Shown here in pieces: positions 7,694 to 38,895 of a DNA stretch of 49,856 nucleotides (positions within the stretch are counted from its first letter, which is position 1; the number at the start of each line of letters is the position of its first letter). Where the stretch lies: IMG/VR virus record IMGVR_UViG_3300029003_000089; one strand, given 5' to 3'. Origin of the DNA: a virus (lineage: Duplodnaviria; Heunggongvirae; Uroviricota; Caudoviricetes). The position numbers and the translations under genes are program-made. Below the pieces are notes generated by a model. It saw only the letters and a program-made list of their open reading frames with translations, made no database searches and was not told the origin of the DNA.

Positions 7694-8370
7694 CACCGGA
7701 CATTATCCTGCAGCGTACCGGGATCGACGTGAGAGCTGTCGAACAGGGGGATGATGCATGGCACAAATTACGGCTCGGCGTCATCACCGCTTCAGAAGTT
7801 CACAACGTGATAGCAAAGCCCCGCTCAGGAAAGAAGTGGCCTGACATGAAAATGTCCTACTTCCACACCCTGCTGGCTGAGGTTTGCACCGGTGTGGCTC
7901 CGGAAGTTAATGCTAAGGCGCTGGCGTGGAGAAAACAGTACGAGAACGACGCCAGAACCCTGTTTGAATTCACTTCCGGCGTGAATGTTACTGAATCCCC
8001 GATCATCTATCGCGACGAAAGTATGCGCACCGCCTGCTCTCCCGATGGTTTATGCAGTGACGGCAATGGCCTTGAGCTGAAATGCCCGTTTACCTCCCGG
8101 GATTTCATGAAGTTCCGGCTCGGTGGTTTCGAGGCCATAAAGTCGGCTTACATGGCCCAGGTGCAGTACAGCATGTGGGTGACACGAAAAGATGCCTGGT
8201 ACTTTGCCAACTATGACCCACGAATGAAGCGTGAAGGCCTGCATTATGTCGTGGTTGAGCGGGATGAAAAGTACATGGCGAGTTTTGACGAGATGGTGCC
8301 GGAGTTCATCGAAAAAATGGACGAAGCACTGGCTGAAATTGGTTTTGTATTTGGAGAGCAATGGCGATGA
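7690..8370 (+). CDS. exo: Exo (Red-alpha 5'-3' exonuclease)
   Basis: 226 aa translation matches remembered lambda Exo; overlaps bet stop (ATGA). Confidence 0.95.
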
Positions 8371-8549
8371 CCCATCCTCACGATAATATCCGGGTAGGCG
8401 CGATCACTTTCGTCTACTCCGTTACAAAGCGAGGCTGGGTATTTCACGGTCTTTCTGTTATCCGAAATCCGCTGAAAGCCCAGCGGCTGGCTGAGGAGAT
8501 AAATAATAAACGGGGGGCGGTATGCACAAAGCATCTCCTGTTGAGTTAA
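8361..8549 (+). CDS. Hypothetical small protein
   Basis: 62 aa ORF in operon context after exo. Confidence 0.35.
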
Positions 8550-8713
8550 GAACGAGTATTGATTTGGCACATAGCCTTGCTCAAATTGGAGTCAGGTTTG
8601 TGCCAATACCAGCAGAAACAGACGAAGAATTTCATACGTTAGCCACATCCCTTTCACAAAAGCTGGAAATGATGGTGGCGAAAGCAGAAGCAGATGAGAG
8701 AGACCAGGTATGA
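8522..8713 (+). CDS. Hypothetical small protein
   Basis: 63 aa ORF, same strand. Confidence 0.3.
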   Translation: MHKASPVELRTSIDLAHSLAQIGVRFVPIPAETDEEFHTLATSLSQKLEMMVAKAEADERDQV

Positions 8714-10013: not shown

Positions 10014-10250
10014 ATGTCTCGACTAATCACTTTACAGGACTGGGCTAAAGAAGAATTTGGGGACTTAGCACCAAGTGAGCGAGTTCTGAAAAAATACGCG
10101 CAAGGGAAAATGATGGCCCCACCCGCTATAAAAGTTGGTCGCTACTGGATGATTGACCGAAATTCCCGTTTTGTAGGAACGCTTGCAGAACCGCAACTCC
10201 CAATAAACGCAAACCCAAAACTCCAAAGGATAATCGCTGATGGCTGCTAG
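10014..10250 (+). CDS. xis: Excisionase (Xis-like)
   Basis: 78 aa; TLQDWAKE...RVLKKYA...PPAIKVGRYW resembles lambda Xis; overlaps int start; SD aggagg upstream. Confidence 0.6.
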   Translation: MSRLITLQDWAKEEFGDLAPSERVLKKYAQGKMMAPPAIKVGRYWMIDRNSRFVGTLAEPQLPINANPKLQRIIADGC

Positions 10251-11382
10251 ACCCCGATCTCACAAAATCTCTATACCCAATTTATATTGCAAATTAGATA
10301 AGCGAACCGGAAAGGTATATTGGCAATACAAACATCCACTATCCGGTCGTTTTCATAGCTTAGGAACTGATGAGAATGAAGCAAAACAAGTTGCTACTGA
10401 AGCAAATACCATTATTGCTGAACAACGTACCAGACAAATATTAAGCGTCAATGAGCGTCTGGAAAGAATGAAAGGCAGGCGCTCAGACATTACGGTGACA
10501 GAATGGCTTGATAAATATATTTCTATCCAAGAGGACAGGCTGCAACATAATGAACTAAGACCCAACTCCTATCGGCAAAAAGGCAAACCCATTCGTCTTT
10601 TCCGTGAGCATTGTGGAATGCAACACCTCAAGGATATTACCGCACTTGATATTGCCGAAATAATTGATGCTGTAAAGGCTGAAGGTCATAACAGGATGGC
10701 GCAAGTCATGAGAATGGTGTTGATCGACGTCTTCAAAGAAGCACAACACGCAGGACATGTTCCGCCAGGATTTAACCCAGCGCAGGCAACAAAACAACCG
10801 CGAAATCGAGTAAACCGCCAAAGATTGTCACTGCCCGAATGGCAGGCAATATTTGACAGCGTAAGCAGACGGCAGCCCTATTTAAAATGCGGCATGCTAC
10901 TTGCTCTTGTTACTGGACAACGTTTAGGCGATATCTGCAATTTGAAATTCTCTGATATATGGGACGACATGTTGCACATTACTCAGGAAAAAACCGGTTC
11001 AAAACTTGCTATTCCGCTTAACCTGAAATGCGATGCTCTGAATATTACCCTTCGTGAAGTTATATCTCAGTGCAGGGATGCTGTTGTTAGTAAATATCTG
11101 GTCCATTACCGTCACACTACCTCTCAAGCAAACAGAGGAGACCAGGTTTCTGCAAATACTCTGACAACGGCTTTTAAAAAGGCCCGGGAAAAATGTGGCA
11201 TAAAATGGGAGCAAGGAACTGCGCCCACATTTCATGAGCAGCGATCTCTGTCAGAACGGTTATATCGGGAACAGGGTCTGGATACGCAAAAGTTGTTAGG
11301 CCATAAATCCAGAAAAATGACCGACCGATACAATGATGATCGTGGTAAAGACTGGATTATCGTAGATATCAAAACAGCATAG
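10240..11382 (+). CDS. int: Tyrosine integrase, e14 IntE family (icd-targeting)
   Basis: 380 aa; clear paralog of the second integrase at 47603-48730 (shared blocks MAARPR, LLALVTGQRLGDI, KFSDIWDD, TFHEQRSLSERLY, LLGHK); adjacent to icd 3' fragment. Confidence 0.9.
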   Translation: MAARPRSHKISIPNLYCKLDKRTGKVYWQYKHPLSGRFHSLGTDENEAKQVATEANTIIAEQRTRQILSVNERLERMKGRRSDITVTEWLDKYISIQEDRLQHNELRPNSYRQKGKPIRLFREHCGMQHLKDITALDIAEIIDAVKAEGHNRMAQVMRMVLIDVFKEAQHAGHVPPGFNPAQATKQPRNRVNRQRLSLPEWQAIFDSVSRRQPYLKCGMLLALVTGQRLGDICNLKFSDIWDDMLHITQEKTGSKLAIPLNLKCDALNITLREVISQCRDAVVSKYLVHYRHTTSQANRGDQVSANTLTTAFKKAREKCGIKWEQGTAPTFHEQRSLSERLYREQGLDTQKLLGHKSRKMTDRYNDDRGKDWIIVDIKTA

Positions 11383-11392
11383 AAAATAGCCA

Positions 11393-11433
11393 GTTTTGGG
11401 GAAGGGTTTTGGGGAAAGTTTTGGGGAAGATTT
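11393..11433. repeat. Three tandem TTTTGGGGAA repeats, candidate integrase arm-type sites
   Basis: agttttggggaagggttttggggaaagttttggggaag immediately after int stop and near the att/icd junction. Confidence 0.4.
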
Positions 11434-11458
11434 TACATCATCATAAAACAACGGGCGT

Positions 11459-11482
11459 GTTATACGCCCGTTTCAATATTTA
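11459..11482. terminator. Bidirectional hairpin between convergent int and icd fragment
   Basis: acgggcgt gttat acgcccgt with T-rich flanks on both strands. Confidence 0.5.
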
Positions 11483-11500
11483 ACACATGTAGTGATTACA

Positions 11501-11660
11501 TATTCTTGATGATCGCGTCACCAAACTCTGAACATTTCAGCAGTTTAGCGCCTTCCATCAGACGTTCGAAGTCATAGGTTACGGTCTTGGCATTGATTGC
11601 GCCTTCCATACCTTTAACAATCAGGTCAGCCGCTTCAGTCCAACCCATATGGCGCAGCAT
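11501..11660 (-). pseudogene. icd: icd (isocitrate dehydrogenase) 3'-terminal fragment, att-associated duplicate
   Basis: Minus-strand translation [58 protein letters not shown] matches remembered Icd C-terminus; upstream frame closed by stop. Confidence 0.8.
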
Positions 11661-11893
11661 TAGTTAGATGACTAAATCGTAACTATTTGACATAGCAACA
11701 TAATTTTACTAATTTGCATATAACTCATTAGCCCTTAGCATTTCTATAACTCATTGATTATAAACATGTGTTTTTGAGTTTTGATAACCATTTTTAGCAT
11801 AAAAATAGCAGTTAACATTTGCAGAAGTTAAGATCAGAGAAAAATTTTACCCTGTAGGGTATTACGTCTTAAATGTGACTTTAATAAATAATT

Positions 11894-12727
11894 TTATTTC
11901 TGTAATCGGTTTATATTAACGTAAAGCATCTCGATTAGTTCTTTTGCATTTTTACTATAGTGCAATTCTCTATGGCAATTCGGACAAAGGGCAACACAGT
12001 TATCTGTTGTATCAGCACCACCTGAAGACAGGGGAATTACATGATGCACTTCCAAATATGGGTTTCCATCATTTAAATAAAACGGAGCATTTTTACCACA
12101 GTTTTCACATATACCTTTACTTTGCTGTAAAATCCAAGCTTTTACCATCGGGTCTCGGACATAAACTTTTTGTAGTCTTTCTACCTCAACTGGTTTCCTA
12201 GAGCCCTCGGGTTGACTCAACGTTTTCTTAATTAATTTACTAACCCTCATATTCAGAAGCGATTCATCATCTGTAGGCTGTGAAAGCTCTGATAGTTCTC
12301 CACGTATTATAGACGCCCAAAAACTGTCACTATAAATACCTGGAACATTTATCAATATTCGTTTCGTTCTATTGCCGGAAGGAATTTCCTTTCTCCCCGT
12401 ACGACTAAAATAAGCCTGATAACCACACATCTTCAAGCGTATATCGCGGGGGCTATTACCAATCAAAGTAAAATATTCACCAGGATGGATTTTTCTTTCA
12501 TCCAAAGAATGCATATGTTTTCTGACTGATGATGACGCCAGATATACTACGACTTGGGATACACCAGAATCAACCAACCGTTCAATGATATAATCAAGAG
12601 CGATATTGTAATCTTTGTTTCTGTCACCCGGCCCCCACGACTCAAGGATTAGACCATAAACACCATCCTCTTCACCTATCGAACACTCAGCTTTCAGTTC
12701 AATTCCATTATTATCAAAAACATGCAT
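11894..12727 (-). CDS. mcrA: McrA, 5-methylcytosine-specific HNH restriction endonuclease
   Basis: 277 aa; matches remembered e14 McrA including C-terminal HNH motif (EVHHVIPLSSGG...CPNCH); AT-rich gene. Confidence 0.9.
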   Translation of the reverse strand: MHVFDNNGIELKAECSIGEEDGVYGLILESWGPGDRNKDYNIALDYIIERLVDSGVSQVVVYLASSSVRKHMHSLDERKIHPGEYFTLIGNSPRDIRLKMCGYQAYFSRTGRKEIPSGNRTKRILINVPGIYSDSFWASIIRGELSELSQPTDDESLLNMRVSKLIKKTLSQPEGSRKPVEVERLQKVYVRDPMVKAWILQQSKGICENCGKNAPFYLNDGNPYLEVHHVIPLSSGGADTTDNCVALCPNCHRELHYSKNAKELIEMLYVNINRLQK

Positions 12728-12833
12728 AATATTAATCTTTAATCAATTTTTCACGACAATACTACTTTTATTGATAAAATTGCAACAAGTTGCTGTTGTT
12801 TTACTTTCTTTTGTACACAAAGTGTCTTTAACT

Positions 12834-13388
12834 TTATTTATCCCCTGCAGGAAACCTCTTATACAAAGTTGACACACCAACATCATAGATAATCGCCACC
12901 TTCTGGCGAGGAACTCCTGATGCAATTAATCGTCCGGCCTGTTCCCATTGTTCTGGTGTAAGTTTGGGACGACGTCCACCAATTCGTCCCTGTGCGCGAG
13001 CAGCTTCCAGTCCAGCTTTTGTTCTTTCAACAATCAGTTCACGCTCCATTTCAGCCAGGGCACCCATCACATGAAAGAAAAAGCGCCCCATTGGGGTACT
13101 GGTATCAATTGAATCCGTCAGACTACGAAAGTTGATGCCTCGTTCGCGCAACTCCTCCACCAGCACGACAAGATGCCGCATACTGCGCCCCAGTCGGTCC
13201 AGTTTCCAGACCACCAGCGTATCACCTGCCGATAATGTCCTGAGCAGTTTTTTCAGTCCCGGCCTTTCGGACTTTGTACCGCTTATCTTGTCTTCAAAAA
13301 TCAGCTCGCATCCTGCACAGTTCAGCGCATTACGTTGTAGATCTGTGTTCTGGTCATTTGTTGACACACGTACATAGCCAATAAGCAT
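12834..13388 (-). CDS. pin: Pin DNA invertase (serine recombinase, Hin/Gin/Cin family)
   Basis: Translation from internal Met MLIGYVRVSTNDQ (184 aa) matches remembered e14 Pin; adjacent to hix-like site. Confidence 0.9.
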   Translation of the reverse strand: MLIGYVRVSTNDQNTDLQRNALNCAGCELIFEDKISGTKSERPGLKKLLRTLSAGDTLVVWKLDRLGRSMRHLVVLVEELRERGINFRSLTDSIDTSTPMGRFFFHVMGALAEMERELIVERTKAGLEAARAQGRIGGRRPKLTPEQWEQAGRLIASGVPRQKVAIIYDVGVSTLYKRFPAGDK

Positions 13389-13442
13389 GGTAGATCTCCC
13401 TGACAAAAGCAGGAATGATGCCATTTGCTCGTTATTTCTGCA

Positions 13443-13468
13443 TTTTCATAAACGTTGGTTTGGGAGAA
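13443..13468. repeat. hix/gix-like recombination site (left end of invertible tail-fibre segment)
   Basis: TTTTCATAAACG TT GGTTTGGGAGAA; right half identical to the inverted copy at 15301-15326. Confidence 0.7.
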
Positions 13469-13948
13469 GGCTCAGCATTACCCGTTGGTGTGCCTGTTCC
13501 GTGGCCTTCAGCCACTCCGCCAACAGGCTGGCTGAAATGCAACGGAGCAGCTTTTTCTGCTGAAGAATACCCGGAACTGGCAAAGGCTTATCCGACAAAT
13601 AAATTACCTGATTTACGCGGTGAGTTTATTCGTGGCTGGGATGACGGACGTGGAGTGGATAACGGAAGGGGATTATTAACGCTTCAGGACGGTGCGATTG
13701 TCAGTCATAACCACTATTGGGGAATCTGGACTTCACGAACTAACGACCAGACTCTGGGAAGTTTTACAGGCACCACGATTTTAAAACAAATCACGCCCCT
13801 GTCTCCGGCCATTGACTTCGATAATTACCCAATTCCCAACCCGGCTATTACAGAGGGTGGTGTTGTTGCGGCAACGACTAAACCTGCAGGTGCGAATGAA
13901 ACACGCCCACGAAATGTCGCTTTTAACTATATTGTGAGGGCTGCATAA
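13457..13948 (+). CDS. Alternative tail-fibre C-terminal segment (silent orientation inside invertible segment)
   Basis: Frame continues GLGEGSALPVG... from the crossover core, exactly in frame with the constant fibre N-terminus ...ALENLGLGE after inversion; ORF track 13415-13948. Confidence 0.7.
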   Translation, partial: GLGEGSALPVGVPVPWPSATPPTGWLKCNGAAFSAEEYPELAKAYPTNKLPDLRGEFIRGWDDGRGVDNGRGLLTLQDGAIVSHNHYWGIWTSRTNDQTLGSFTGTTILKQITPLSPAIDFDNYPIPNPAITEGGVVAATTKPAGANETRPRNVAFNYIVRAA

Positions 13949-14550
13949 TGAATAACGCAGAATTAAACAGTGAATTAATTGCCACTATGGCAGGAGAAAT
14001 TACTGTTTATAACTTTGACGTCATGAGTCGGGAGTATATTTCAGCTTCAACTGAATATCTTGCTGTTGGTGTCGGCATTCCGGCATATTCCTGTTTAGAT
14101 GCTCCAGGCACCTACAAAGCTGGTTATGCAATCTGCCGCTCTGCAGATTTTAACTCATGGGAATATGTACCAGACCATCGCGGTGAAATCGTCTATAACA
14201 CCGAAACGGGAGACGCCAAAGAAATCACAACTCCGGGTGATTACCCCGAAAAAACAACCACTATCGCCCCGTTAACGCCATACGATAAATGGGATGGTGA
14301 GAAATGGGTGACGGATACTGAGACACAGCATAGCGCCGCAGTAGACGCGGCAGAAGCACAACGTCAGTCACTGATTGATACTGCAATGGCTTCCATTAGT
14401 CTGATTCAACTGAAATTGCAGGCCGGGCGGAAGCTGATGCAGGCAGAGACCACCCGACTTAACACTGTGCTGGATTACATTGACGCGGTGACGGCAACAG
14501 ATACCAGTACCGCGCCGGATGTCATCTGGCCTGAACTGCCGGAGGAGTAG
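13948..14550 (+). CDS. Tail fibre assembly protein (Tfa) for the alternative fibre
   Basis: 200 aa; C-terminal motif PDVIWPELPE shared with the other Tfa (PDIEWPTPP); downstream of alternative fibre segment. Confidence 0.75.
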   Translation: MNNAELNSELIATMAGEITVYNFDVMSREYISASTEYLAVGVGIPAYSCLDAPGTYKAGYAICRSADFNSWEYVPDHRGEIVYNTETGDAKEITTPGDYPEKTTTIAPLTPYDKWDGEKWVTDTETQHSAAVDAAEAQRQSLIDTAMASISLIQLKLQAGRKLMQAETTRLNTVLDYIDAVTATDTSTAPDVIWPELPEE

Positions 14551-14953
14551 GCCATTCAATATCTGGCGCACTGGAAGTATCGACCAGTTCCAGTGCGTCC
14601 AGATAATCCAGCCACAAATTATATTGCGCCAGTTCCTCACCTTTCAGACGACCAATCGCCGCTTTACCAGGCCATTGTTTACTGTTCATGTATTCGTTGG
14701 CCTGATTAACTAATCGCTGTTTATTTGATTCAGCGATTGAGATTAATTCTTCGCTGGTAAGTGGTGGCGCATCCTGCCATGCTGGAAAACCATTTTTATC
14801 TGAACCAAGTATTTTACCATCAGGCCATGCAACTCCTGCGAACTCAGAATAAATAGTAAAGTTTATTTTCGTAGCGTTCTCAGGAATGGTTTGGCTATCT
14901 GGTGAAATATAAAATCCCGAATCAGAGGGATTAAAATAATATGTCTTTTCCAT
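14522..14953 (-). CDS. Tail fibre assembly protein (Tfa) for the currently expressed fibre
   Basis: 143 aa; Tfa-like; immediately downstream of tail fibre gene. Confidence 0.75.
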   Translation of the reverse strand: MEKTYYFNPSDSGFYISPDSQTIPENATKINFTIYSEFAGVAWPDGKILGSDKNGFPAWQDAPPLTSEELISIAESNKQRLVNQANEYMNSKQWPGKAAIGRLKGEELAQYNLWLDYLDALELVDTSSAPDIEWPTPPAVQAR

Positions 14954-14955
14954 AG

Positions 14956-15603
14956 TTAATACCCCACAGCCATCCAGTAAATTGAATTTGTTGTAGCAGA
15001 AGTGTAAGTAAATCTGATTTTAGTTCTGTTGGTACTTCCAATATCAAAGCCCACAGAACGGGCAGAAGGATCATTAGTTGAAATAAGAGCGTTTACCGAA
15101 CGACAAGCAGCAGGGAAAGCTACAGGTAATGTTATATCAACTGTTCCAACACTTCCTCCGGTTGGTGAGACAGAAAAACTCCCCCATTGAATAATCATCC
15201 CCCCAGGTAATTTCTGGTATCCATTGGCGGTCAATGAGTTACCAAAGCTGTTCATATCCGGTACCTGATTTTCTCCTGTCCCCACATTCCTCTTTGCCGC
15301 TTCTCCCAAACCAAGGTTTTCGAGAGCTGTTTTCACCGTGCCATCCGATTTGATATCGCCAAACGGATTCTTGCGGCTTAACAGCAGCGCACGAAGCGCG
15401 GTAAGCAGCTGGTCATGCCGCCCCTTCTCCAGGCTGGCACCGGATGCCTCCACAACGCTGCAAAGCTCCTCCTGCAACATGTCAAAGTAGTCATCATCCA
15501 GATCAGTGGCAGGCGTGCCGGTCTGGGGGTTACCACGGGTAAAACCGTTCTTACCCGCGCCGAACTTATCCTTCTGCGCGGTTTTCGTGTCTATACGATG
15601 CAT
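14956..15603 (-). CDS. Tail fibre protein (constant N-terminus 15603-15315 fused to variable C-terminus within invertible segment)
   Basis: 215 aa; hix-like site lies inside the coding sequence at the LGLGE codons. Confidence 0.8.
15301..15326. repeat. hix/gix-like recombination site (right end of invertible segment)
   Basis: TTCTCCCAAACC AA GGTTTTCGAGAG, same half-site layout as remembered hixL TTCTTGAAAACCAAGGTTTTTGATAA. Confidence 0.75.
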
Positions 15604-32577: not shown

Positions 32578-32928
32578 TTACTTCAGCCGTTCACGGGCCG
32601 TCTTCGCCTTATGACACGGCCAGCACAGACTCTGCAGATTACTGTCGGCATCAGAGCCGCCATGCGCTTTAGGGATGATGTGGTCAACGGTTTTCGCCTC
32701 ACGCGCCACACCGGCACGCAGACATAACTGACACAGGCCTTTGTCACGCTTGAGCACACGTTCACGGATAACATCCCATTTCGAACCATAACCGCGCTGG
32801 TGACGGGACAGGCCGCGTTGATATTGGATCCATCCTTCACCACGATGTTTAACACAATACCCAGAATTGTCTGTTGTAGTCCCCGCACACCCGTGCTTAC
32901 GACATGCTCGGGGAATTCGTGACGCCAT
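32578..32928 (-). CDS. Phage HNH endonuclease (packaging-associated)
   Basis: 116 aa; CxxC ... DHIIPKAHGG ... CWPCH motifs; immediately upstream of terminase genes. Confidence 0.85.
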   Translation of the reverse strand: MASRIPRACRKHGCAGTTTDNSGYCVKHRGEGWIQYQRGLSRHQRGYGSKWDVIRERVLKRDKGLCQLCLRAGVAREAKTVDHIIPKAHGGSDADSNLQSLCWPCHKAKTARERLK

Positions 32929-32965
32929 ATTATCTCCAATAAAAAACCCGCTAAAGCGGGTCTTG

Positions 32966-33391
32966 TTAGCAACTTATTAACATTGCATGGTTATTTAGCA
33001 TCCAGTCGTTTAACTCATTTTCTGCCCATTCTACGTCTATAAGCACTTTGCATAAATTCGAAGGTTTAAGAAGTTCACCTGCTGACGCCCCTGAAGGCCA
33101 AAAATGCACAGCTACATAATTTTGAGTTACATATGTTTTTTTTATAGTTTGTCGTGTTTCGATTGAGATAATCACATCCGATATTTTACATTTTCTTTTT
33201 TTGACCAAAAAATCATGAATTCGCTCCCCAACAGCTTCCTTAAAAATAGTTGAGTTAGCATGTTGATTAAATGTTGCAAAAATAAGTTTAAGTTCGCAAT
33301 TTAAAGCCTTAGCTTTTGATATTCCTAATTGCATAGCCTTGTGAGCAGCAAGTATATGATTGCTATTTGCCCTGATTACATACTTTTCCAT
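32966..33391 (-). CDS. Hypothetical protein in AT-rich moron between lysis cassette and HNH/terminase
   Basis: 141 aa ORF; strongly AT-rich with ~375 bp AT-rich upstream non-coding region. Confidence 0.5.
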   Translation of the reverse strand: MEKYVIRANSNHILAAHKAMQLGISKAKALNCELKLIFATFNQHANSTIFKEAVGERIHDFLVKKRKCKISDVIISIETRQTIKKTYVTQNYVAVHFWPSGASAGELLKPSNLCKVLIDVEWAENELNDWMLNNHAMLISC

Positions 33392-33765
33392 ATTCGCTCT
33401 CCCAAAAAATCAGAGGTATATAATAAGAACATAGAAAAATTTATCAATAAAATCAGCAACAAAAGTAGCTCATCAGCATTACTGACTAAAAGTTCTAATA
33501 TCATTAACAAACGAGTATTGCACTGTACACTTTTTCAAAACGGACAAGTCTTTCAGATACTCACATCGACAACCAATAAAGAACACCAATTGTACTCATC
33601 TCGCGTCAATTCATTGTAGCCTGTGAGCCTATGCTTTCTGATCACAACGCTACCAGTATTATCGCTTCAAGCAGGAATGAACTCCGTATTTTAGCATCCA
33701 AAGGAATTAGCTGTCCCCAAACAGGGTATTAGAACGTAACAATATCACTTTACTAATATAATCAG

Positions 33766-34227
33766 CTAGTTAACACACTGCGCTCTGATGTATTCCTGTA
33801 GGTAATTAACCTGTGCAGTTATCTTGTCGATTCCACTTCGGAGGCGGTAATAATTGAGTTCAGAATCTGCTGTAAGTCTTGGGCTTTCTCCATCGCCCAT
33901 GCCGCTGGCTCTGGTCGTTGATTTTGCACAGGTGGCGGCGACTTGCAGGCGCTTACGCCCAGCAGAAACATCAGCACGGAGGCTTTCGATAGTCGCGTTA
34001 GCATCAGCAAGCTCCTTTGTGTATCTGGCGTCAAGTTCTGCTACGTCACGTTGACGCTTCTGCATATCAGAAATGGTCGCCATAGCCGAATCTAATGCCA
34101 TAGCATTCTCATCACGCTGCTTTTTGTATTCAATAGCTTTATTGTGGTAATGATTCGCTGAACAGATAAAAGAACCGATGACAGTAAAGAAGAATGCAGA
34201 GATAGCCAGCTTATAGCTCAACTTCAT
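33766..34227 (-). CDS. Rz: Rz-like i-spanin
   Basis: 153 aa; N-terminal TM then coiled coil; overlaps endolysin end. Confidence 0.75.
   Translation of the reverse strand: MKLSYKLAISAFFFTVIGSFICSANHYHNKAIEYKKQRDENAMALDSAMATISDMQKRQRDVAELDARYTKELADANATIESLRADVSAGRKRLQVAATCAKSTTRASGMGDGESPRLTADSELNYYRLRSGIDKITAQVNYLQEYIRAQCVN
33819..34004 (-). CDS. Rz1: Rz1-like o-spanin lipoprotein embedded in Rz (+1 frame)
   Basis: Lipobox-like VSAC followed by proline-rich KSPPPVQNQRPEP; fully nested in Rz. Confidence 0.6.
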   Translation of the reverse strand: MLTRLSKASVLMFLLGVSACKSPPPVQNQRPEPAAWAMEKAQDLQQILNSIITASEVESTR

Positions 34228-34687
34228 TTACCACCCCACCAGCCTCTTTAAACCGGGAAATCAGGTCACCGATTTTATGTTCATACTGACCGTAACCTGC
34301 ACCAGGTAACGACGCCCAGATATTGCTGCAACGATCGATAGCCTGACGAATATCGCCGCGATCAATCATCGGTAAAGCGCCACGCTCTTTAATCTGCTGT
34401 AATGCAACAGCATCCTGGCTTTTAGGAGAGAAGTCTGTCAGCCCTAACTGCTTGCGGTAAGCATCCCACCAGCGCGAAAGAAGTTGATAACGGCCTGCAG
34501 CTGTTGATTTGAGTTTCGGGTTTAGCGTGACAAGCTTGCGAGGGTGATCGGAGTAATCAGTGAAGAGTTCTCCACCGACAATAACATCATAACCGTGGTT
34601 ACGTGTCGGTTGTCGCCCGTTATCCGTTCCTTCTGACCATGCCACCATATCGAGGAAAGCTTTACGCTGGGAATTTAGTACCTGCAT
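34211..34687 (-). CDS. R: Endolysin, lambda R-like
   Basis: 158 aa; matches remembered lambda R across most of its length (EGTDNGRQPTRNHGYDVIVGGELFTDYSDHPRK...). Confidence 0.9.
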   Translation of the reverse strand: MQVLNSQRKAFLDMVAWSEGTDNGRQPTRNHGYDVIVGGELFTDYSDHPRKLVTLNPKLKSTAAGRYQLLSRWWDAYRKQLGLTDFSPKSQDAVALQQIKERGALPMIDRGDIRQAIDRCSNIWASLPGAGYGQYEHKIGDLISRFKEAGGVVNEVEL

Positions 34688-34690
34688 AAA

Positions 34691-35017
34691 TTACTCCTTA
34701 GAGCCACCAAACTTGTTACCGATTACTCGCATTGCAGCCCCACGAATAGCATCGACACCGATCAGCCCCACCCCACCACCAATGGCAACAGATAGTGATT
34801 TAGGCCATCCGACATACTCAAGCGCGGATGCAAATGTCAGCGTCAGAGCGCCACAGAGTAAAATCTCAAGCGTTTTTCGCTTCCAGCCACCACCACCGCC
34901 AAAATAGGCAATGCGCAAGCCAGCCATAACGATCGACATAATCACTGCGCCCAGTGGTGTGTCTCCACGCCACCAGCTCTGGACCAACTCCAGCCAGGTA
35001 TTTGGGTTATGAGGCAT
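34691..35017 (-). CDS. Holin
   Basis: 108 aa with hydrophobic helices, directly upstream of endolysin. Confidence 0.7.
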   Translation of the reverse strand: MPHNPNTWLELVQSWWRGDTPLGAVIMSIVMAGLRIAYFGGGGGWKRKTLEILLCGALTLTFASALEYVGWPKSLSVAIGGGVGLIGVDAIRGAAMRVIGNKFGGSKE

Positions 35018-35169
35018 TTGTAGTTATCTCTCACCTCGCTGATACAGCAGGTGCAAATTGAGGGAACATCATGTACAGCAAATTAGAAGCGGAAACGTCA
35101 AAGAAGCCGAACCAATGGATAACTGCGGAATAGACCAGGACCAACGAATCCCCAGCCCCAGAAACGACA

Positions 35170-35196
35170 AAACCCGCTCAACGGCGGGTTTAAGCT
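35170..35196 (-). terminator. Hairpin with minus-strand T-rich tail upstream of holin (tR'-like)
   Basis: aacccgc tcaac gcgggtt; minus strand continues TTTGTCGTTTCT. Confidence 0.4.
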
Positions 35197-35307
35197 GTGT
35201 GGCGAAGTAACCACTCTTAACAGAGTACTGTATTTTTTGCGTACGCATTAGTATTTTTTGAAGTATTATCAACACCAATTGTTCAAAACCATTAAAAGGA
35301 TGTTGTT

Positions 35308-36342
35308 ATGACTGCATCAGCGACCCCCACTAATATCACTCATAAGTTTATTGTTCACATTATGAACAAGGAACAACAGGGGTTAGCCACCATTATTCCT
35401 TGTCCTTCAGAAAAACCTGTTCAGCAAGCATCAAAAGACCTCTCTAACGCACTTACTGAAAGGTACTCTGGGAGAGCAGGTAAAGGATATGGGAAATTTG
35501 AAGATGACCGCGATAGTTACCCTATGGGTAATATCGTTGATGATTATTTCGTAAATAAAACACATAGTTTTTATGATACTAGTATCCGAATGATCAATCA
35601 TTTAAAAGCCAGAGCCGATGATGAATCAATGTCTACTGGTGGTTATGTAATAATTGCCCATAATGAGGTAAATGGAAATCATTATTTGATGGTTGCAATC
35701 CTAACTTCAGCAGTTGGCTCTTCAGTCCACGATTTTGAAATTCAAGAAAGTGAATATCTAGACATTGCTAAACTTCGAGTAGCGGGACGAATTGACTTAA
35801 CTGGGCGCCAGAATGGCAAAGAGAGATATATTAGCTTTCTAAAGGGGCAAAATTCAGTAGCAGGTTATTTCAAAAAGTTTTTAGGTTGCAACGATATTCT
35901 AATTGCCAAACAAGAAACAACAAAATTACGGAATGCACTTTTAGAATTTGCTACTGAAAGAGGTTTTGAACCAGAGGCACGTGAAGAGTTCCTAAATAAG
36001 GCTCATGAAAAATTAAAAAATTTAAATCGTTCTGGTGAAACTTTCGACACTCAAATTTTTGCAAACGAGATATGGCCAACTGCTCCTGAGTTGTTAGTTG
36101 AAAAGTTAACCAATGACGATCTGGAGTTCTCTGATGGGTTCGTGCCTGATGGCAACGTTATACGTGGGCTTGTTAGTTTCAAAGGAAAGTCCAAACATTG
36201 GTCTCTGAAATTCGAGCGTGCGGCCTTGCATGATGGCAGCGTTCTTTATGATTCAGAAAACGATAAATTGATACTTACCGAGATTCCGGATACGCTAAGA
36301 TCAGAGATTTTATCAGAATTAGGTGAAGAGGATGAGCAGTAA
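35308..36342 (+). CDS. NdpA/YejK-family nucleoid-associated-protein homolog (first gene of opposite-strand cargo cassette)
   Basis: 344 aa; blocks GGYVIIAHNEVNGNHYLMVAILTS, YLDIAKLRVAGRIDLT, RYISFLKG, DKLILTEIPDTLR align with remembered E. coli YejK; SD aaaagga upstream; AT-rich. Confidence 0.65.
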   Translation: MTASATPTNITHKFIVHIMNKEQQGLATIIPCPSEKPVQQASKDLSNALTERYSGRAGKGYGKFEDDRDSYPMGNIVDDYFVNKTHSFYDTSIRMINHLKARADDESMSTGGYVIIAHNEVNGNHYLMVAILTSAVGSSVHDFEIQESEYLDIAKLRVAGRIDLTGRQNGKERYISFLKGQNSVAGYFKKFLGCNDILIAKQETTKLRNALLEFATERGFEPEAREEFLNKAHEKLKNLNRSGETFDTQIFANEIWPTAPELLVEKLTNDDLEFSDGFVPDGNVIRGLVSFKGKSKHWSLKFERAALHDGSVLYDSENDKLILTEIPDTLRSEILSELGEEDEQ

Positions 36343-37510
36343 AAATCAGAGAACCTTCAAAGACTTAGTGACTATTTACAAGGCCGCTACATTTGCAGGT
36401 ACCCTATCTGAAGCATCACTCATTCTTTCAAACGAGGAGCTCTGTGACATCATCAACGATATCACAGAGAATCCCCATGATTTTGGCATCACCCTTGAAT
36501 CTGGCAACATTGAGTTAGGCCAAACTATAACCTTACATATAACCCCCCCAAAATTACGATTGGGGCAGCTACATTTCTCTTTTAATGAGTATTTAAAAAA
36601 TCCTAAAAATAGGATAAAGGAAGCCAGTAACTTCTTTATAATCGAACTTAATTATCACAACAGGGATAAAAAGTCGCCTGCTATTATATCCAAGTACAGA
36701 GATGTTTTGAGCTTAATTACTTTATTCAAAGATTGTTCTGCTTATTTAGATGAAACAAATTTTGAATTGGTATTCGTCGAATCCAACGTACTAAAAATTC
36801 CAGTAAATTATTCTAGCGATGACCTTATGAATGTTAATGGAGATCTGATTCATAATTTGATCGCAAACTTTGCAGAAGATACGCATAAAGATCAAAAACT
36901 TACTATTTTAGCAAGTAGTATAAAATCATCATGTGAATCTAAAACTAAAGAAACCTCTTTTTCCTTCATGTTAAGGGATTTAGGACAACTTTATGAAAGT
37001 TATCAAAAAGGATACAAAGTATTCGTTTCTGGTTTTTCTTACGAGAAAATACTGGATCAGTTACGAGTAGCCAAAATAGAAGAGATGGGGAAAATACATA
37101 AAGTATTCAGTGACATACAAAATCAGATATTAGGTATCCCCGTCGCAACAATTATCGTTGCGACTCAAATGAAGCAGGCTAATGGTTGGGATAGTCAAGC
37201 ATTAATAAACACAGCTGTAGTGTTGGGTGCATTGTTCTTCACTATTATGATTATATTTGTTCTATTTAATCAATGGCAAACTTTAACAGCAATAAATGAT
37301 GAGTTAAATCATAAAAAACAACAAGCAGAATATAACTTCAAGGCTATTTACGAAGATATAAAGGATACATTTGATAGTTTAACCACAAGATTGCTTGTTC
37401 AGAAAGTTGTTTTTGCCTCATTAGGAATTATAGTTTTATGTGGCTTATATCTTACATTTAGATTCTACTTTTTACTTACACCTTATGCTATTACATATTT
37501 ATTTAGCTGA
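36323..37510 (+). CDS. Hypothetical protein with two C-terminal transmembrane helices (second gene of cassette)
   Basis: 395 aa; ~285 aa soluble N-terminal region, then hydrophobic ALINTAVVLGALFFTIMIIFVLF and VVFASLGIIVLCGLYLTFRFYFLL; start overlaps gene 1 by 20 bp. Confidence 0.6.
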   Translation: MKRMSSKNQRTFKDLVTIYKAATFAGTLSEASLILSNEELCDIINDITENPHDFGITLESGNIELGQTITLHITPPKLRLGQLHFSFNEYLKNPKNRIKEASNFFIIELNYHNRDKKSPAIISKYRDVLSLITLFKDCSAYLDETNFELVFVESNVLKIPVNYSSDDLMNVNGDLIHNLIANFAEDTHKDQKLTILASSIKSSCESKTKETSFSFMLRDLGQLYESYQKGYKVFVSGFSYEKILDQLRVAKIEEMGKIHKVFSDIQNQILGIPVATIIVATQMKQANGWDSQALINTAVVLGALFFTIMIIFVLFNQWQTLTAINDELNHKKQQAEYNFKAIYEDIKDTFDSLTTRLLVQKVVFASLGIIVLCGLYLTFRFYFLLTPYAITYLFS

Positions 37511-37527
37511 CGGCCAATATGGCCGTC
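37509..37527. terminator. Perfect hairpin between convergent cassette gene and Q gene
   Basis: gacggcca tat tggccgtc followed by taataaatt. Confidence 0.5.
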
Positions 37528-37534
37528 TAATAAA

Positions 37535-37882
37535 TTACCCATGTATTATATATATAACTGCATCAATAAATCCCAATGCAGCTTGCAACTTTTTTCTTAT
37601 AGTCCCATCAGAGCATTTTCTCTTCTTCGCAATAGTGCGTAATGAGATACCGATAACAAAGTGAGCAATGATTAGCTCATATTCTTCAGGCCTATATTTA
37701 CGCAACCGAGCCACACAACTGTCTATCATAATGCCTTCGTCATCATCACACTGAATCCGGGACTTTTTGCCATGAGGTAAAAGTCCCTTGAAGCCAGCGG
37801 CTACCGGTTGCCAGTCCACTCCGCTATTGTCTGAAGCAGCCCAAGCTCCCCAACGATCCATTACTTCATACATATCACGCAT
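37535..37882 (-). CDS. Late-gene antiterminator Q (QuuD/phage-82-type family)
   Basis: Resembles remembered DLP12 QuuD (ERWGAWAA, AAGFKGL, CDDD, CSDG); likely start at internal MRDMYEV. Confidence 0.7.
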   Translation of the reverse strand: MRDMYEVMDRWGAWAASDNSGVDWQPVAAGFKGLLPHGKKSRIQCDDDEGIMIDSCVARLRKYRPEEYELIIAHFVIGISLRTIAKKRKCSDGTIRKKLQAALGFIDAVIYIIHG

Positions 37883-37899
37883 CAACTTTCTCCACAAAA

Positions 37900-38895
37900 T
37901 CAGGCCAGCACACCAATTGCCAGCGCACGATCGATAAAACGAAATATCAGCTCCAGCTGGGAGCCATACATCTCTTCAAAGGCCACGGTATCCGCATGCA
38001 GCTCGTCGTGATGCTTTCTGCACAAAGGCAACACAAAGAGGTCATGCGCTTTTGTCCCCATTCCACCCTGACCATGGCCTATCAGGTGGTGGGGATCATC
38101 AGCGGGCTTTCCACAACATGCACACGGCTGTGTCTTAACCCAGCGCGTGTACTTTTCATTAACCCAGCGGCGACGTTTTGGGCGTAACATAAAAGACTCC
38201 GGTGACTCCGGATCCACTTTCAGCGCCAGCACCTTTTTCGCCTTATCTTGGATGATGCTGGTGGCAGGAACCGAAGGCACAAGGTCACTTTCCCGGGTGA
38301 CAGACGGCACAACAGGCTTCGGTAATCTCAGTGCCTTACGGGCTGCACTTTCCGGTAAGGCATCCGCCAGGTCATTACGAATCAGCCACCAGCACAGTTC
38401 CGGCATTGTCACAACGTGACTATCATCAAAACCGAGATCCCGACGCACGACAGACAACACCCAGCGGGCACAGTTATCCGTTGCCATTGATTCCAGCCGT
38501 TCCGTGAACTGGTCACGCAGCTGGTTATCGCAGTGCCAGCACAGACGAATTGCTCCCGGAGCGTGCCGCATTGTGGTCATGTTCTCGCTGTGCCAGTCGG
38601 AATGAGGCCACTGACAGCCCTTTTCACGAAGTAACCAGCTTTCAAGACATTCCACGCCACCAGCACGACGGATCACTGCCTCATTGCGGAACACGGCCCG
38701 AACGGCAGGATCATCCGCCAGCGGTTGTGATGCCGCCGGAACGGCACCACTGGCGAAAGATGAATAACGTTCCGGCTCAGGCTCCAGCAGGACACGCCCC
38801 TGCATAAACAGGGGCATCAGCTCTGAACCTGGCCTGAACAATACGATCCCCATACGCGGGGCAATTTCAGGGGTCAGTAGTGCTCTCACGGTCAC
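37900..38895 (-). CDS. DUF968-like protein (YdfU-like), Cys/His-rich C-terminus
   Basis: 331 aa; C-terminal CACCGKPADDPHHL...H..C.KHH motif; position upstream of Q. Confidence 0.55.
   Translation of the reverse strand: MTVRALLTPEIAPRMGIVLFRPGSELMPLFMQGRVLLEPEPERYSSFASGAVPAASQPLADDPAVRAVFRNEAVIRRAGGVECLESWLLREKGCQWPHSDWHSENMTTMRHAPGAIRLCWHCDNQLRDQFTERLESMATDNCARWVLSVVRRDLGFDDSHVVTMPELCWWLIRNDLADALPESAARKALRLPKPVVPSVTRESDLVPSVPATSIIQDKAKKVLALKVDPESPESFMLRPKRRRWVNEKYTRWVKTQPCACCGKPADDPHHLIGHGQGGMGTKAHDLFVLPLCRKHHDELHADTVAFEEMYGSQLELIFRFIDRALAIGVLA

Follow-up and report, generated by a model that had tools for sequence, protein, structure and literature searches.

Two anti-phage systems described recently combine a YejK-like nucleoid-associated protein (NAP) with a second protein encoded beside it. 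DS-1, a replicated and validated E. coli anti-phage pair from DefensePredictor, is encoded NAP first (NAP at 220602-221777, partner at 221780-222994; WP_000355468.1 and WP_000150292.1, working id D390 in Table S8), and the same paper counts the YejK domain among the domains newly validated in defence (Science 2026, PMC13092281). Type II PANGU is a bicistronic system made up of the YejK-like NAP Pag2A and the transmembrane (TM) effector Pag2B, in the latter of which an acidic N-terminal "DNA-mimicking" (DMK) domain precedes a C-terminal TM region (Li et al., bioRxiv 10.64898/2026.04.06.716658). The E. coli system protects against T4 by abortive infection, for which both genes are needed; T4 escapes through denA (EndoII) mutations, and on infection Pag2A leaves the nucleoid and binds the soluble domain of Pag2B at 19 nM (10.64898/2026.04.06.716658). 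The proposal there is that degradation of the nucleoid by the phage sets the NAP sensor free, which then activates the membrane effector. Here we analyse a two-gene cassette in a 49,856-nucleotide stretch of Caudoviricetes DNA (IMG/VR record IMGVR_UViG_3300029003_000089; the window, below, is this whole stretch). The element that carries it is a lambdoid prophage of E. coli. By analogy with DS-1 and Type II PANGU, the pair is probably a prophage-carried anti-phage defence module of the same NAP-sensor class. Its two genes are as follows.

35308..36342, plus strand: gene 1, a 344-aa YejK/NdpA-family nucleoid-associated protein identical to WP_000127202.1
36332..37510, plus strand: gene 2, a 392-aa predicted membrane partner identical to WP_052516676.1, with an alternative GTG start at 36323

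A preliminary description, made from the letters of this DNA, had placed gene 1 in the NdpA/YejK family, and the profile searches agree. Its product matches Pfam NA37 (PF04245) end to end, at profile positions 1-324 of 325 (232.9 bits with a cut-off of 24.6, E 8e-69), and it also matches the solved YejK structure PDB 9be2 (E 1.7e-19) and phrog_3767. With the NCBIfam YejK equivalog NF001557, however, it scores 164.8 bits, below the cut-off of 341, and because of this shortfall we regard it, on sequence grounds, as a YejK paralogue and not the housekeeping orthologue. It has no CxxC pair. By analogy we propose it as a candidate infection sensor resembling Pag2A and DS-1A.

Gene 2 has no match in Pfam, and its profile found none in a sequence search of PDB; it does match phrog_5023, to which no function is assigned there. 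In the AlphaFold2 model, which was built on 39 homologues and has a mean predicted local distance difference test score (pLDDT) of 80.6, an alpha/beta N-domain (residues ~1-180) and a helical region (186-280) are followed by two long helices, and the hydrophobic segments seen in the hydropathy profile, at about 288-316 and 350-384, fall within these helices. The earlier proposal of a soluble domain followed by two C-terminal TM helices is thus upheld, and gene 2 is predicted to be a membrane protein of that build, with the TM helices at about 288-316 and 358-382. In 97% of its family members the soluble part carries a net negative charge, the family median being -9. The best-conserved stretch, residues 222-282, is a near-invariant juxtamembrane signature (GYxxFVSGFSYxKIxDQLRVAKxEEMGKIHKxFSDIQNQILGIPVATIIVATQMK) in which mean identity is 79%, versus 39-44% in the N-domain. 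We propose gene 2, again by analogy, as a candidate membrane effector of the Pag2B/DS-1B kind. The C-terminal half of gene 2 (the signature and the TM hairpin, residues ~191-386) also stands alone in Cupriavidus, as a 208-aa open reading frame (ORF) at 8004-8630 of loci L041-L043 with no NAP gene; partial matches to residues 213-371 (plasmid and phage matches H48, H49 and H53-H55) occur in Acinetobacter and Pseudomonas records. These lone C-terminal halves may be remnants, or an effector module used alone or with a different sensor.

The homology to DS-1 extends to both genes. NCBIfam holds models for the two DS-1 components, NF053868 (DS1_1, "nucleoid-associated anti-phage protein") and NF053869 (DS1_2, "anti-phage protein"), with equivalog cut-offs of 330 and 315 bits; gene 1 matches the former with E 2.8e-15 (56.2 bits) and gene 2 the latter with E 1.5e-19 (70.3 bits). 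Direct comparison gives 25% identity across 197 aa between gene 1 and DS-1A (E 3e-10, the alignment starting at DS-1A residue 63) and 28% across 104 aa between gene 2 and DS-1B (E 3e-7), and hhalign of the gene 2 profile with DS-1B gives a probability of 94% over 267 columns. DS-1A and DS-1B likewise match many members of the gene 1 and gene 2 families, at 1e-8 to 1e-16. Judged from these comparisons, the pair is homologous to DS-1 and lies outside the DS-1 equivalog family; DS-1 proper is found in 0 of the 83 loci described below. The DefensePredictor E. coli-wide table lists WP_000127202.1 (log-odds 9.1) and WP_000097747.1 (log-odds 12.0) as "Predicted novel defense gene" (PMC13092281). Gene 1 is identical to the first of these, and gene 2 is two residues off the second. 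The preliminary description had ranked the pair as a candidate for an undescribed system, a claim that does not survive the publication of NAP-based defence in 2025-2026, the DS1_1 and DS1_2 matches and this listing.

We recovered 83 loci with the gene 2 alignment, 41 from genomes and 42 from viral contigs, and in 77 of them an NA37 homologue lies directly upstream of the gene 2 homologue on the same strand. The six unpaired loci comprise L073 and L096, in which the gene 2 match is at the locus start or close to it and the upstream NAP region falls outside the stored sequence; the three Cupriavidus loci, where the 208-aa C-terminal-half ORFs stand among metabolic genes; and L046, a fragment. 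An apparent counter-example, L091, is an intact pair with a frameshift. The identities of both proteins fall together, from 75/71% down to about 29/28%, and the gene 2 profile collects 1145 clusters at 50% identity (E <= 1e-3; 1.84 billion representatives searched). Lambdoid contexts account for 22 of the 83 loci and Mu/B3-like prophages for 25, while 36 have none of the context markers used; among the contexts sampled separately are two integrase islands, one beside two methyltransferases and the other adjoining smpB, as well as a mobilizable element with ParA/ParG/Fic/MobC and an islet flanked by toxin-antitoxin (TA) genes. Co-occurrence as a unit outside this phage lineage, which the preliminary description had proposed to check, is therefore what the 77/83 loci show, in varied prophage and non-phage contexts.

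The pair is also rare. Homologues of gene 2 are present in 7 of 50,697 phage records and in 6 plasmid records, and the cassette itself is present in 16 of 5426 complete E. coli genomes, always at this site and with at least 99.4% identity, whereas the adjacent 240 bp, which form the late-control region, are common to ~900 E. coli genomes. The exact proteins occur on hundreds of draft contigs, labelled only "nucleoid-associated protein" and "hypothetical protein". The pair is accessory mobile cargo, obligately paired, as opposed to a core function of all relatives. A core phage function was rejected on the counts of E. coli genomes and phage records just given.

NAP genes are common on mobile elements, and the NdpA-like Pnd of plasmid pCAR1 is said to have been proposed for a transcription-tuning role. 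Gene 1, a complete NA37 protein whose pair is carried on prophages, islands and plasmids, could accordingly be read as a mobile-element NAP that tunes host or prophage transcription, with the membrane partner tethering or titrating it, so that the pair would serve housekeeping or silencing and not immunity. We find this very unlikely: the NAP is almost never apart from its membrane partner (77/83 loci), both proteins are homologous to a validated defence pair, and the slot in which the cassette lies is also used by a candidate defence system, as described below.

The cassette occupies a plus-strand segment with minus-strand genes on both flanks, among them one for a DUF968 protein. The boundaries and control features that bear on its position are these.

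34691..35017, minus strand: lambda-family holin S (PF05106, E 5.7e-25; RefSeq annotation of identical copies)
35169..35259, minus strand: late-control block, the left boundary; conserved phage sequence, by position pR'/qut/tR'
35260..35307, plus strand: cassette-specific 5' region, with TATTAT at 35264-35269, a Shine-Dalgarno AAGGA at 35296-35300 and the gene 1 ATG at 35308
37509..37527, no strand: hairpin with a perfect 7-bp stem, GACGGCC-AATAT-GGCCGTC, between the convergent stops
37535..37897, minus strand: 82-type antiterminator Q, the right boundary (PF06530, E 1.9e-44), convergent with gene 2

The GC content is 0.29-0.42 across 35000-37799 and 0.47-0.58 in the flanking DNA on both sides, which confirms the AT-rich character claimed for the cassette. 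Its interval had been drawn from 35018, and this needs correction, since 35018 to ~35258 (~240 bases) is conserved phage late-control sequence and not cargo; the variable segment runs from about 35259 to about 37566, with its right end within the last Q codons. The late-control block is common to relatives with other cargo (L003 and L004), abuts the Q stop in the cargo-free prophage L005, and is present in 366 phage records, standing directly behind Q in Stx-converting phages. Work on H-19B and 933W has placed pR', qut and tR' of the Stx phages directly after Q, with stx downstream. By position, the block would thus correspond to pR'/qut/tR', with holin S, the first gene of the late/lysis operon, downstream of it. 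The -35/-10 hexamers of pR' were not assignable by eye, and the late-promoter assignment is one of positional homology alone.

Because the late-control block abuts Q in the Stx phages and in L005, the cassette would lie upstream of the late promoter, between Q and the block, and by position it would be divergent from pR', convergent with Q and outside the late transcript. The preliminary description was right to place it between Q and the holin. The stx position that it assigned to the cassette was rejected, as the block is directly behind Q in the Stx phages and the cassette lies between the two, and expression antisense to the late operon, which it had also proposed, does not fit a cassette upstream of the late promoter block. 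On the minus strand the block has a hairpin that resembles a terminator (35191->35170), and it also contains an 8-bp perfect palindrome, GCGTACGC, at 35239-35246. Relatives with other cargo retain this palindrome as TGCG(T/G)A(C)CGC, as does the block behind Q in L005, and it could be a binding site for Q or a site for a regulator.

In the same place and on the same strand, other cargo is found in relatives that share the holin and DUF968/Q region. E. coli H7 has a single 339-aa gene there, E. coli strain 3-72 and phage SfII have the two-gene PADLOC candidate PDC-M53A/B, and phage SfIV has another unassigned pair, gp48/gp49.

Window 35259-37566; L003 5347-6366; L004 5411-6899; L098 842-2456; L099 964-2386: slot occupants, each encoded on the other strand from Q and holin

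SfII/e14-like prophages therefore have a cargo hotspot between Q and the late-control block, in which four different occupants occur.

The surroundings of the pair in phages also raise the question of a role in the phage life cycle. In the 22 lambdoid loci the pair adjoins the lysis cassette and is always convergent with an 82-type Q on the opposite strand, 30-140 bp past the gene 2 stop, and this arrangement spans gene 2 identities from 99% to 39% (e.g. L006-L008, L015, L056-L070, L086, L087), which points either to joint transfer of Q and the cassette or to selection for the convergent arrangement. In most of the 25 Mu/B3-like loci the pair is followed on the late-gene strand by a holin, 150-1100 bp downstream, and PHROG families exist for both proteins. 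A part in lysis or late timing, as a holin regulator or membrane-DNA tether, or superinfection exclusion at the membrane by a block on DNA entry, would suit such positions. It does not suit a gene 2 homologue found in only 7/50,697 phage records, a cassette present in only 16 of the ~900 E. coli genomes that share the late-control region, a slot filled by unrelated cargo in close relatives, pairs in non-phage elements, or a lambdoid cassette outside the late transcript, and we consider this explanation very unlikely.

Gene 1 and gene 2 are tightly coupled. The start given to gene 2 in identical RefSeq copies by the Prokaryotic Genome Annotation Pipeline (PGAP) is ATG 36332, behind AGGTGAAGAGG, and overlaps gene 1 by 11 bp, ATGAGCAGTAA; the GTG start at 36323, which would give 395 aa, yields the 20-bp overlap of the preliminary description. 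An overlap as such therefore stands, with the PGAP start giving the shorter length, and because both start choices overlap gene 1 the sequence indicates translational coupling with either. Coupling of this kind and a potentially toxic membrane protein, together with the one family member that stands among TA genes, could be taken as signs of a TA-like addiction module in which the membrane protein is the toxin, the NAP is the antidote and the prophage is stabilised. In Type II PANGU, however, neither gene is toxic alone and the NAP is an activator, not an antidote (10.64898/2026.04.06.716658). Scans of Pfam, PADLOC and NCBIfam gave no match to a TA-family hidden Markov model for either protein, and addiction is, on balance, highly improbable. 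Each of the three alternatives, transcription tuning, a life-cycle role and addiction, explains fewer observations than does NAP-sensor defence.

The TATTAT (-10-like) and AAGGA elements ahead of gene 1 are conserved in the Citrobacter, Klebsiella-phage and Rosenbergiella copies, all in lambdoid context, and the 35260..35307 region is missing from relatives with other cargo; from this we infer a putative promoter of the cassette's own, divergent from the late promoter block. A sigma-70/terminator consensus scan did not call the cassette promoter, promoter-like sites being fewer than in shuffles, and an Rfam search of 34600-38000 returned nothing relevant. At the other end, the hairpin (-16.3 kcal/mol) has the stop codon of gene 2 (37508-37510) on one side and that of Q (37535-37537) on the other. 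Perfect 7-bp hairpins are common by chance, with 139 in the whole window, and the hairpin after the gene 2 stop is kept in position, with compensatory changes, in four relatives (L047, L052, L006 and L008), which are the Citrobacter, Klebsiella-phage, Rosenbergiella and Erwinia copies. The perfect hairpin facing Q that had been noted earlier is thus borne out by its conservation. A T-run follows it in three of these relatives and is weak here, and the hairpin is probably the 3' terminator of the cassette, with a weak U-tract in this copy.

We favour the defence reading because both components are homologous to those of a described system, the architecture matches, the pairing is obligate and the distribution is mobile and hotspot-resident; because the cassette is rare in its lineage, AT-rich and housed in a slot that also holds PDC-M53 (SfII, strain 3-72); because the architecture of gene 2 fits, with a net-negative soluble part and two C-terminal TM helices; and because the DefensePredictor table has both the gene 1 protein and a protein two residues away from gene 2 among its predicted defence genes. 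From homology and architecture we infer all the steps of the mechanism that follows. In the lysogen, transcription of the cassette would start at its own promoter and run away from the phage late promoter. The YejK-like gene 1 protein would sit on the host nucleoid as a sentinel, and the two C-terminal TM helices of the gene 2 protein would hold it in the inner membrane and leave its net-acidic soluble part facing the cytoplasm. If a superinfecting phage then broke down host DNA, as T4 does with EndoII in the PANGU work, the NAP would be freed and would bind the acidic soluble domain of the gene 2 protein instead of DNA. This would switch on the juxtamembrane/TM module, and the resulting damage to membrane integrity or energisation would lead to abortive infection, phage growth no longer being sustained by the infected cell. 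Abortive infection had already been suggested in the preliminary description, and the suggestion is in keeping with the findings on the homologous DS-1 and the similarly built Type II PANGU.

Several points weigh against this assignment. The scores fall far short of the equivalog cut-offs, at 56 bits versus 330 for DS1_1 and 70 bits versus 315 for DS1_2, so that function is transferred across 25-28% identity. The soluble part of this gene 2 protein is only net -5, a modest acidity. PADLOC-DB v2.0.0 gave 0 families at E <= 1 for both proteins, gene 2 included, so that the PADLOC comparison envisaged in the preliminary description produced no match at the locus. The fixed late-strand position in Mu-like prophages could also suit a phage-lifecycle role. 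The mode of action of Pag2B is left unexplained in the PANGU preprint itself (10.64898/2026.04.06.716658). Finally, fold searches with gene 2 gave generic helical matches only, with no specific relative; CorA/Mrs2 and ClyA are among these matches and provide a weak, model-based hint about gene 2.

A more elaborate possibility, and one that we think unlikely as a whole, is that the pair represents a distinct, mobile-element-specialised branch of NAP-sensor immunity, in which a NAP-gated membrane channel or pore is combined with self-silencing of defence on induction. As to the channel or pore, the working region may be the signature at 222-282 together with the TM hairpin, in a layout loosely like that of CorA, with its soluble domain, stalk helix and two TM helices. 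As to silencing, the cassette lies between Q and pR' and is convergent with Q, and read-through could silence defence when the prophage is induced.

Other features of the window and of its relatives lie apart from the cassette. The following lie at 10240-15603.

10240-11382, plus strand: lambda-type integrase, marking the prophage end
11894-12727, minus strand: 277-aa HNH-domain protein, between integrase and invertase
12834-13424, minus strand: Pin/Hin-type invertase, adjoining the plus-strand tail genes
13415-13948, plus strand: tail Collar-domain gene, in the invertible segment
13948-14550, plus strand: Tfa, tail-fibre assembly, in the invertible segment
14522-14953, minus strand: opposing Tfa, in the invertible segment
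14956-15603, minus strand: fibre tip, opposing the plus-strand Collar/Tfa genes

An invertible tail-fibre segment thus occupies 12834-14953 of the window. The preliminary description had taken the pair for the sole plus-strand unit in 11.9-43.9 kb; the ORFs at 13415-13948 and 13948-14550 are also on the plus strand. A second AT-rich island (32800-33800, GC 0.33-0.41) contains a 141-aa ORF at 32966-33391 on the minus strand, between HNH/terminase genes and Rz, which has no match in Pfam, PADLOC or NCBIfam. Its position holds different genes in relatives (L001 6729-7418, L002 6851-7336), and 32800-33800 looks like a second variable moron slot. In the Citrobacter prophage with the same NAP pair (L047-L049, 12039-17155), a colicin-domain gene (PF01024) lies beyond RusA, and SLFN_AlbA_2, a reverse transcriptase and an SMC/AAA protein are present in addition in different isolates, which makes a second variable cargo region that may be related to defence.

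The defence function guessed from the raw sequence is correct as far as these comparisons indicate, but defence of this class has meanwhile been reported and in part dissected, which limits the discovery value of the locus. The value that remains lies in the effector mechanism, the annotation gap and the regulatory logic of the slot. The pair belongs to a divergent branch that has been overlooked or under-called, with no PADLOC match, sub-cut-off NCBIfam scores and generic RefSeq names, although hundreds of draft contigs make the exact proteins common in E. coli. A large effector family (1145 clusters) with a confident model and a sharp juxtamembrane motif could help to solve the mechanism of the Type II effector. 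The Q/pR' cargo slot of SfII/e14-like prophages, which swaps defence candidates, is also documented here.

How the pair stands relative to known systems can be stated component by component. Chromosomal YejK/NdpA has its fold family in common with gene 1 across the whole length, but gene 1, unlike it, sits on AT-rich prophage cargo and is paired with a membrane partner. PDC-M53 is likewise a two-gene cassette that lies in the Q/pR' slot and faces the other way from Q and holin, whereas its proteins are unrelated, so that it bears only on the slot as a defence-cargo hotspot. In Type I PANGU (Pag1A and the GRel toxSAS Pag1B) the effector also has an acidic DNA-mimic domain to which a YejK-like NAP binds; that effector, however, is a soluble alarmone synthetase, and gene 2 has no toxSAS domain and is predicted to be a membrane protein.

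The resemblance to Type II PANGU is in the operon of a NAP and a TM partner, and since the two are likened by published description only, it does not set the clade of the pair (PANGU, DS-1 or a third). The tested PANGU example is likewise from E. coli, and the spread of the gene 2 family over phyla and mobile contexts agrees with the authors' description of their Cluster 2. The pair differs from it in the modest acidity of the gene 2 soluble part and in its setting, the preprint text having 0 occurrences of "prophage" and stressing defence-island linkage, while this copy lies in a prophage Q/pR' slot. With DS-1 the likeness extends to both components, which are homologous, adjacent, on the same strand, NAP first and from E. 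coli, and to a partner of ~400 aa whose N-terminal part is soluble and whose C-terminal helices are hydrophobic. On the other hand, DS-1A has an N-terminal CxxC...CxxC zinc ribbon (NinF-like by HHpred) that gene 1 lacks, the TM segments of DS-1B are less hydrophobic than those of gene 2, and the pair misses both equivalog cut-offs, at an identity of only 25-28%. By sequence, then, the pair is a distant homologue of DS-1 with the layout of Type II PANGU, and not an undescribed system.

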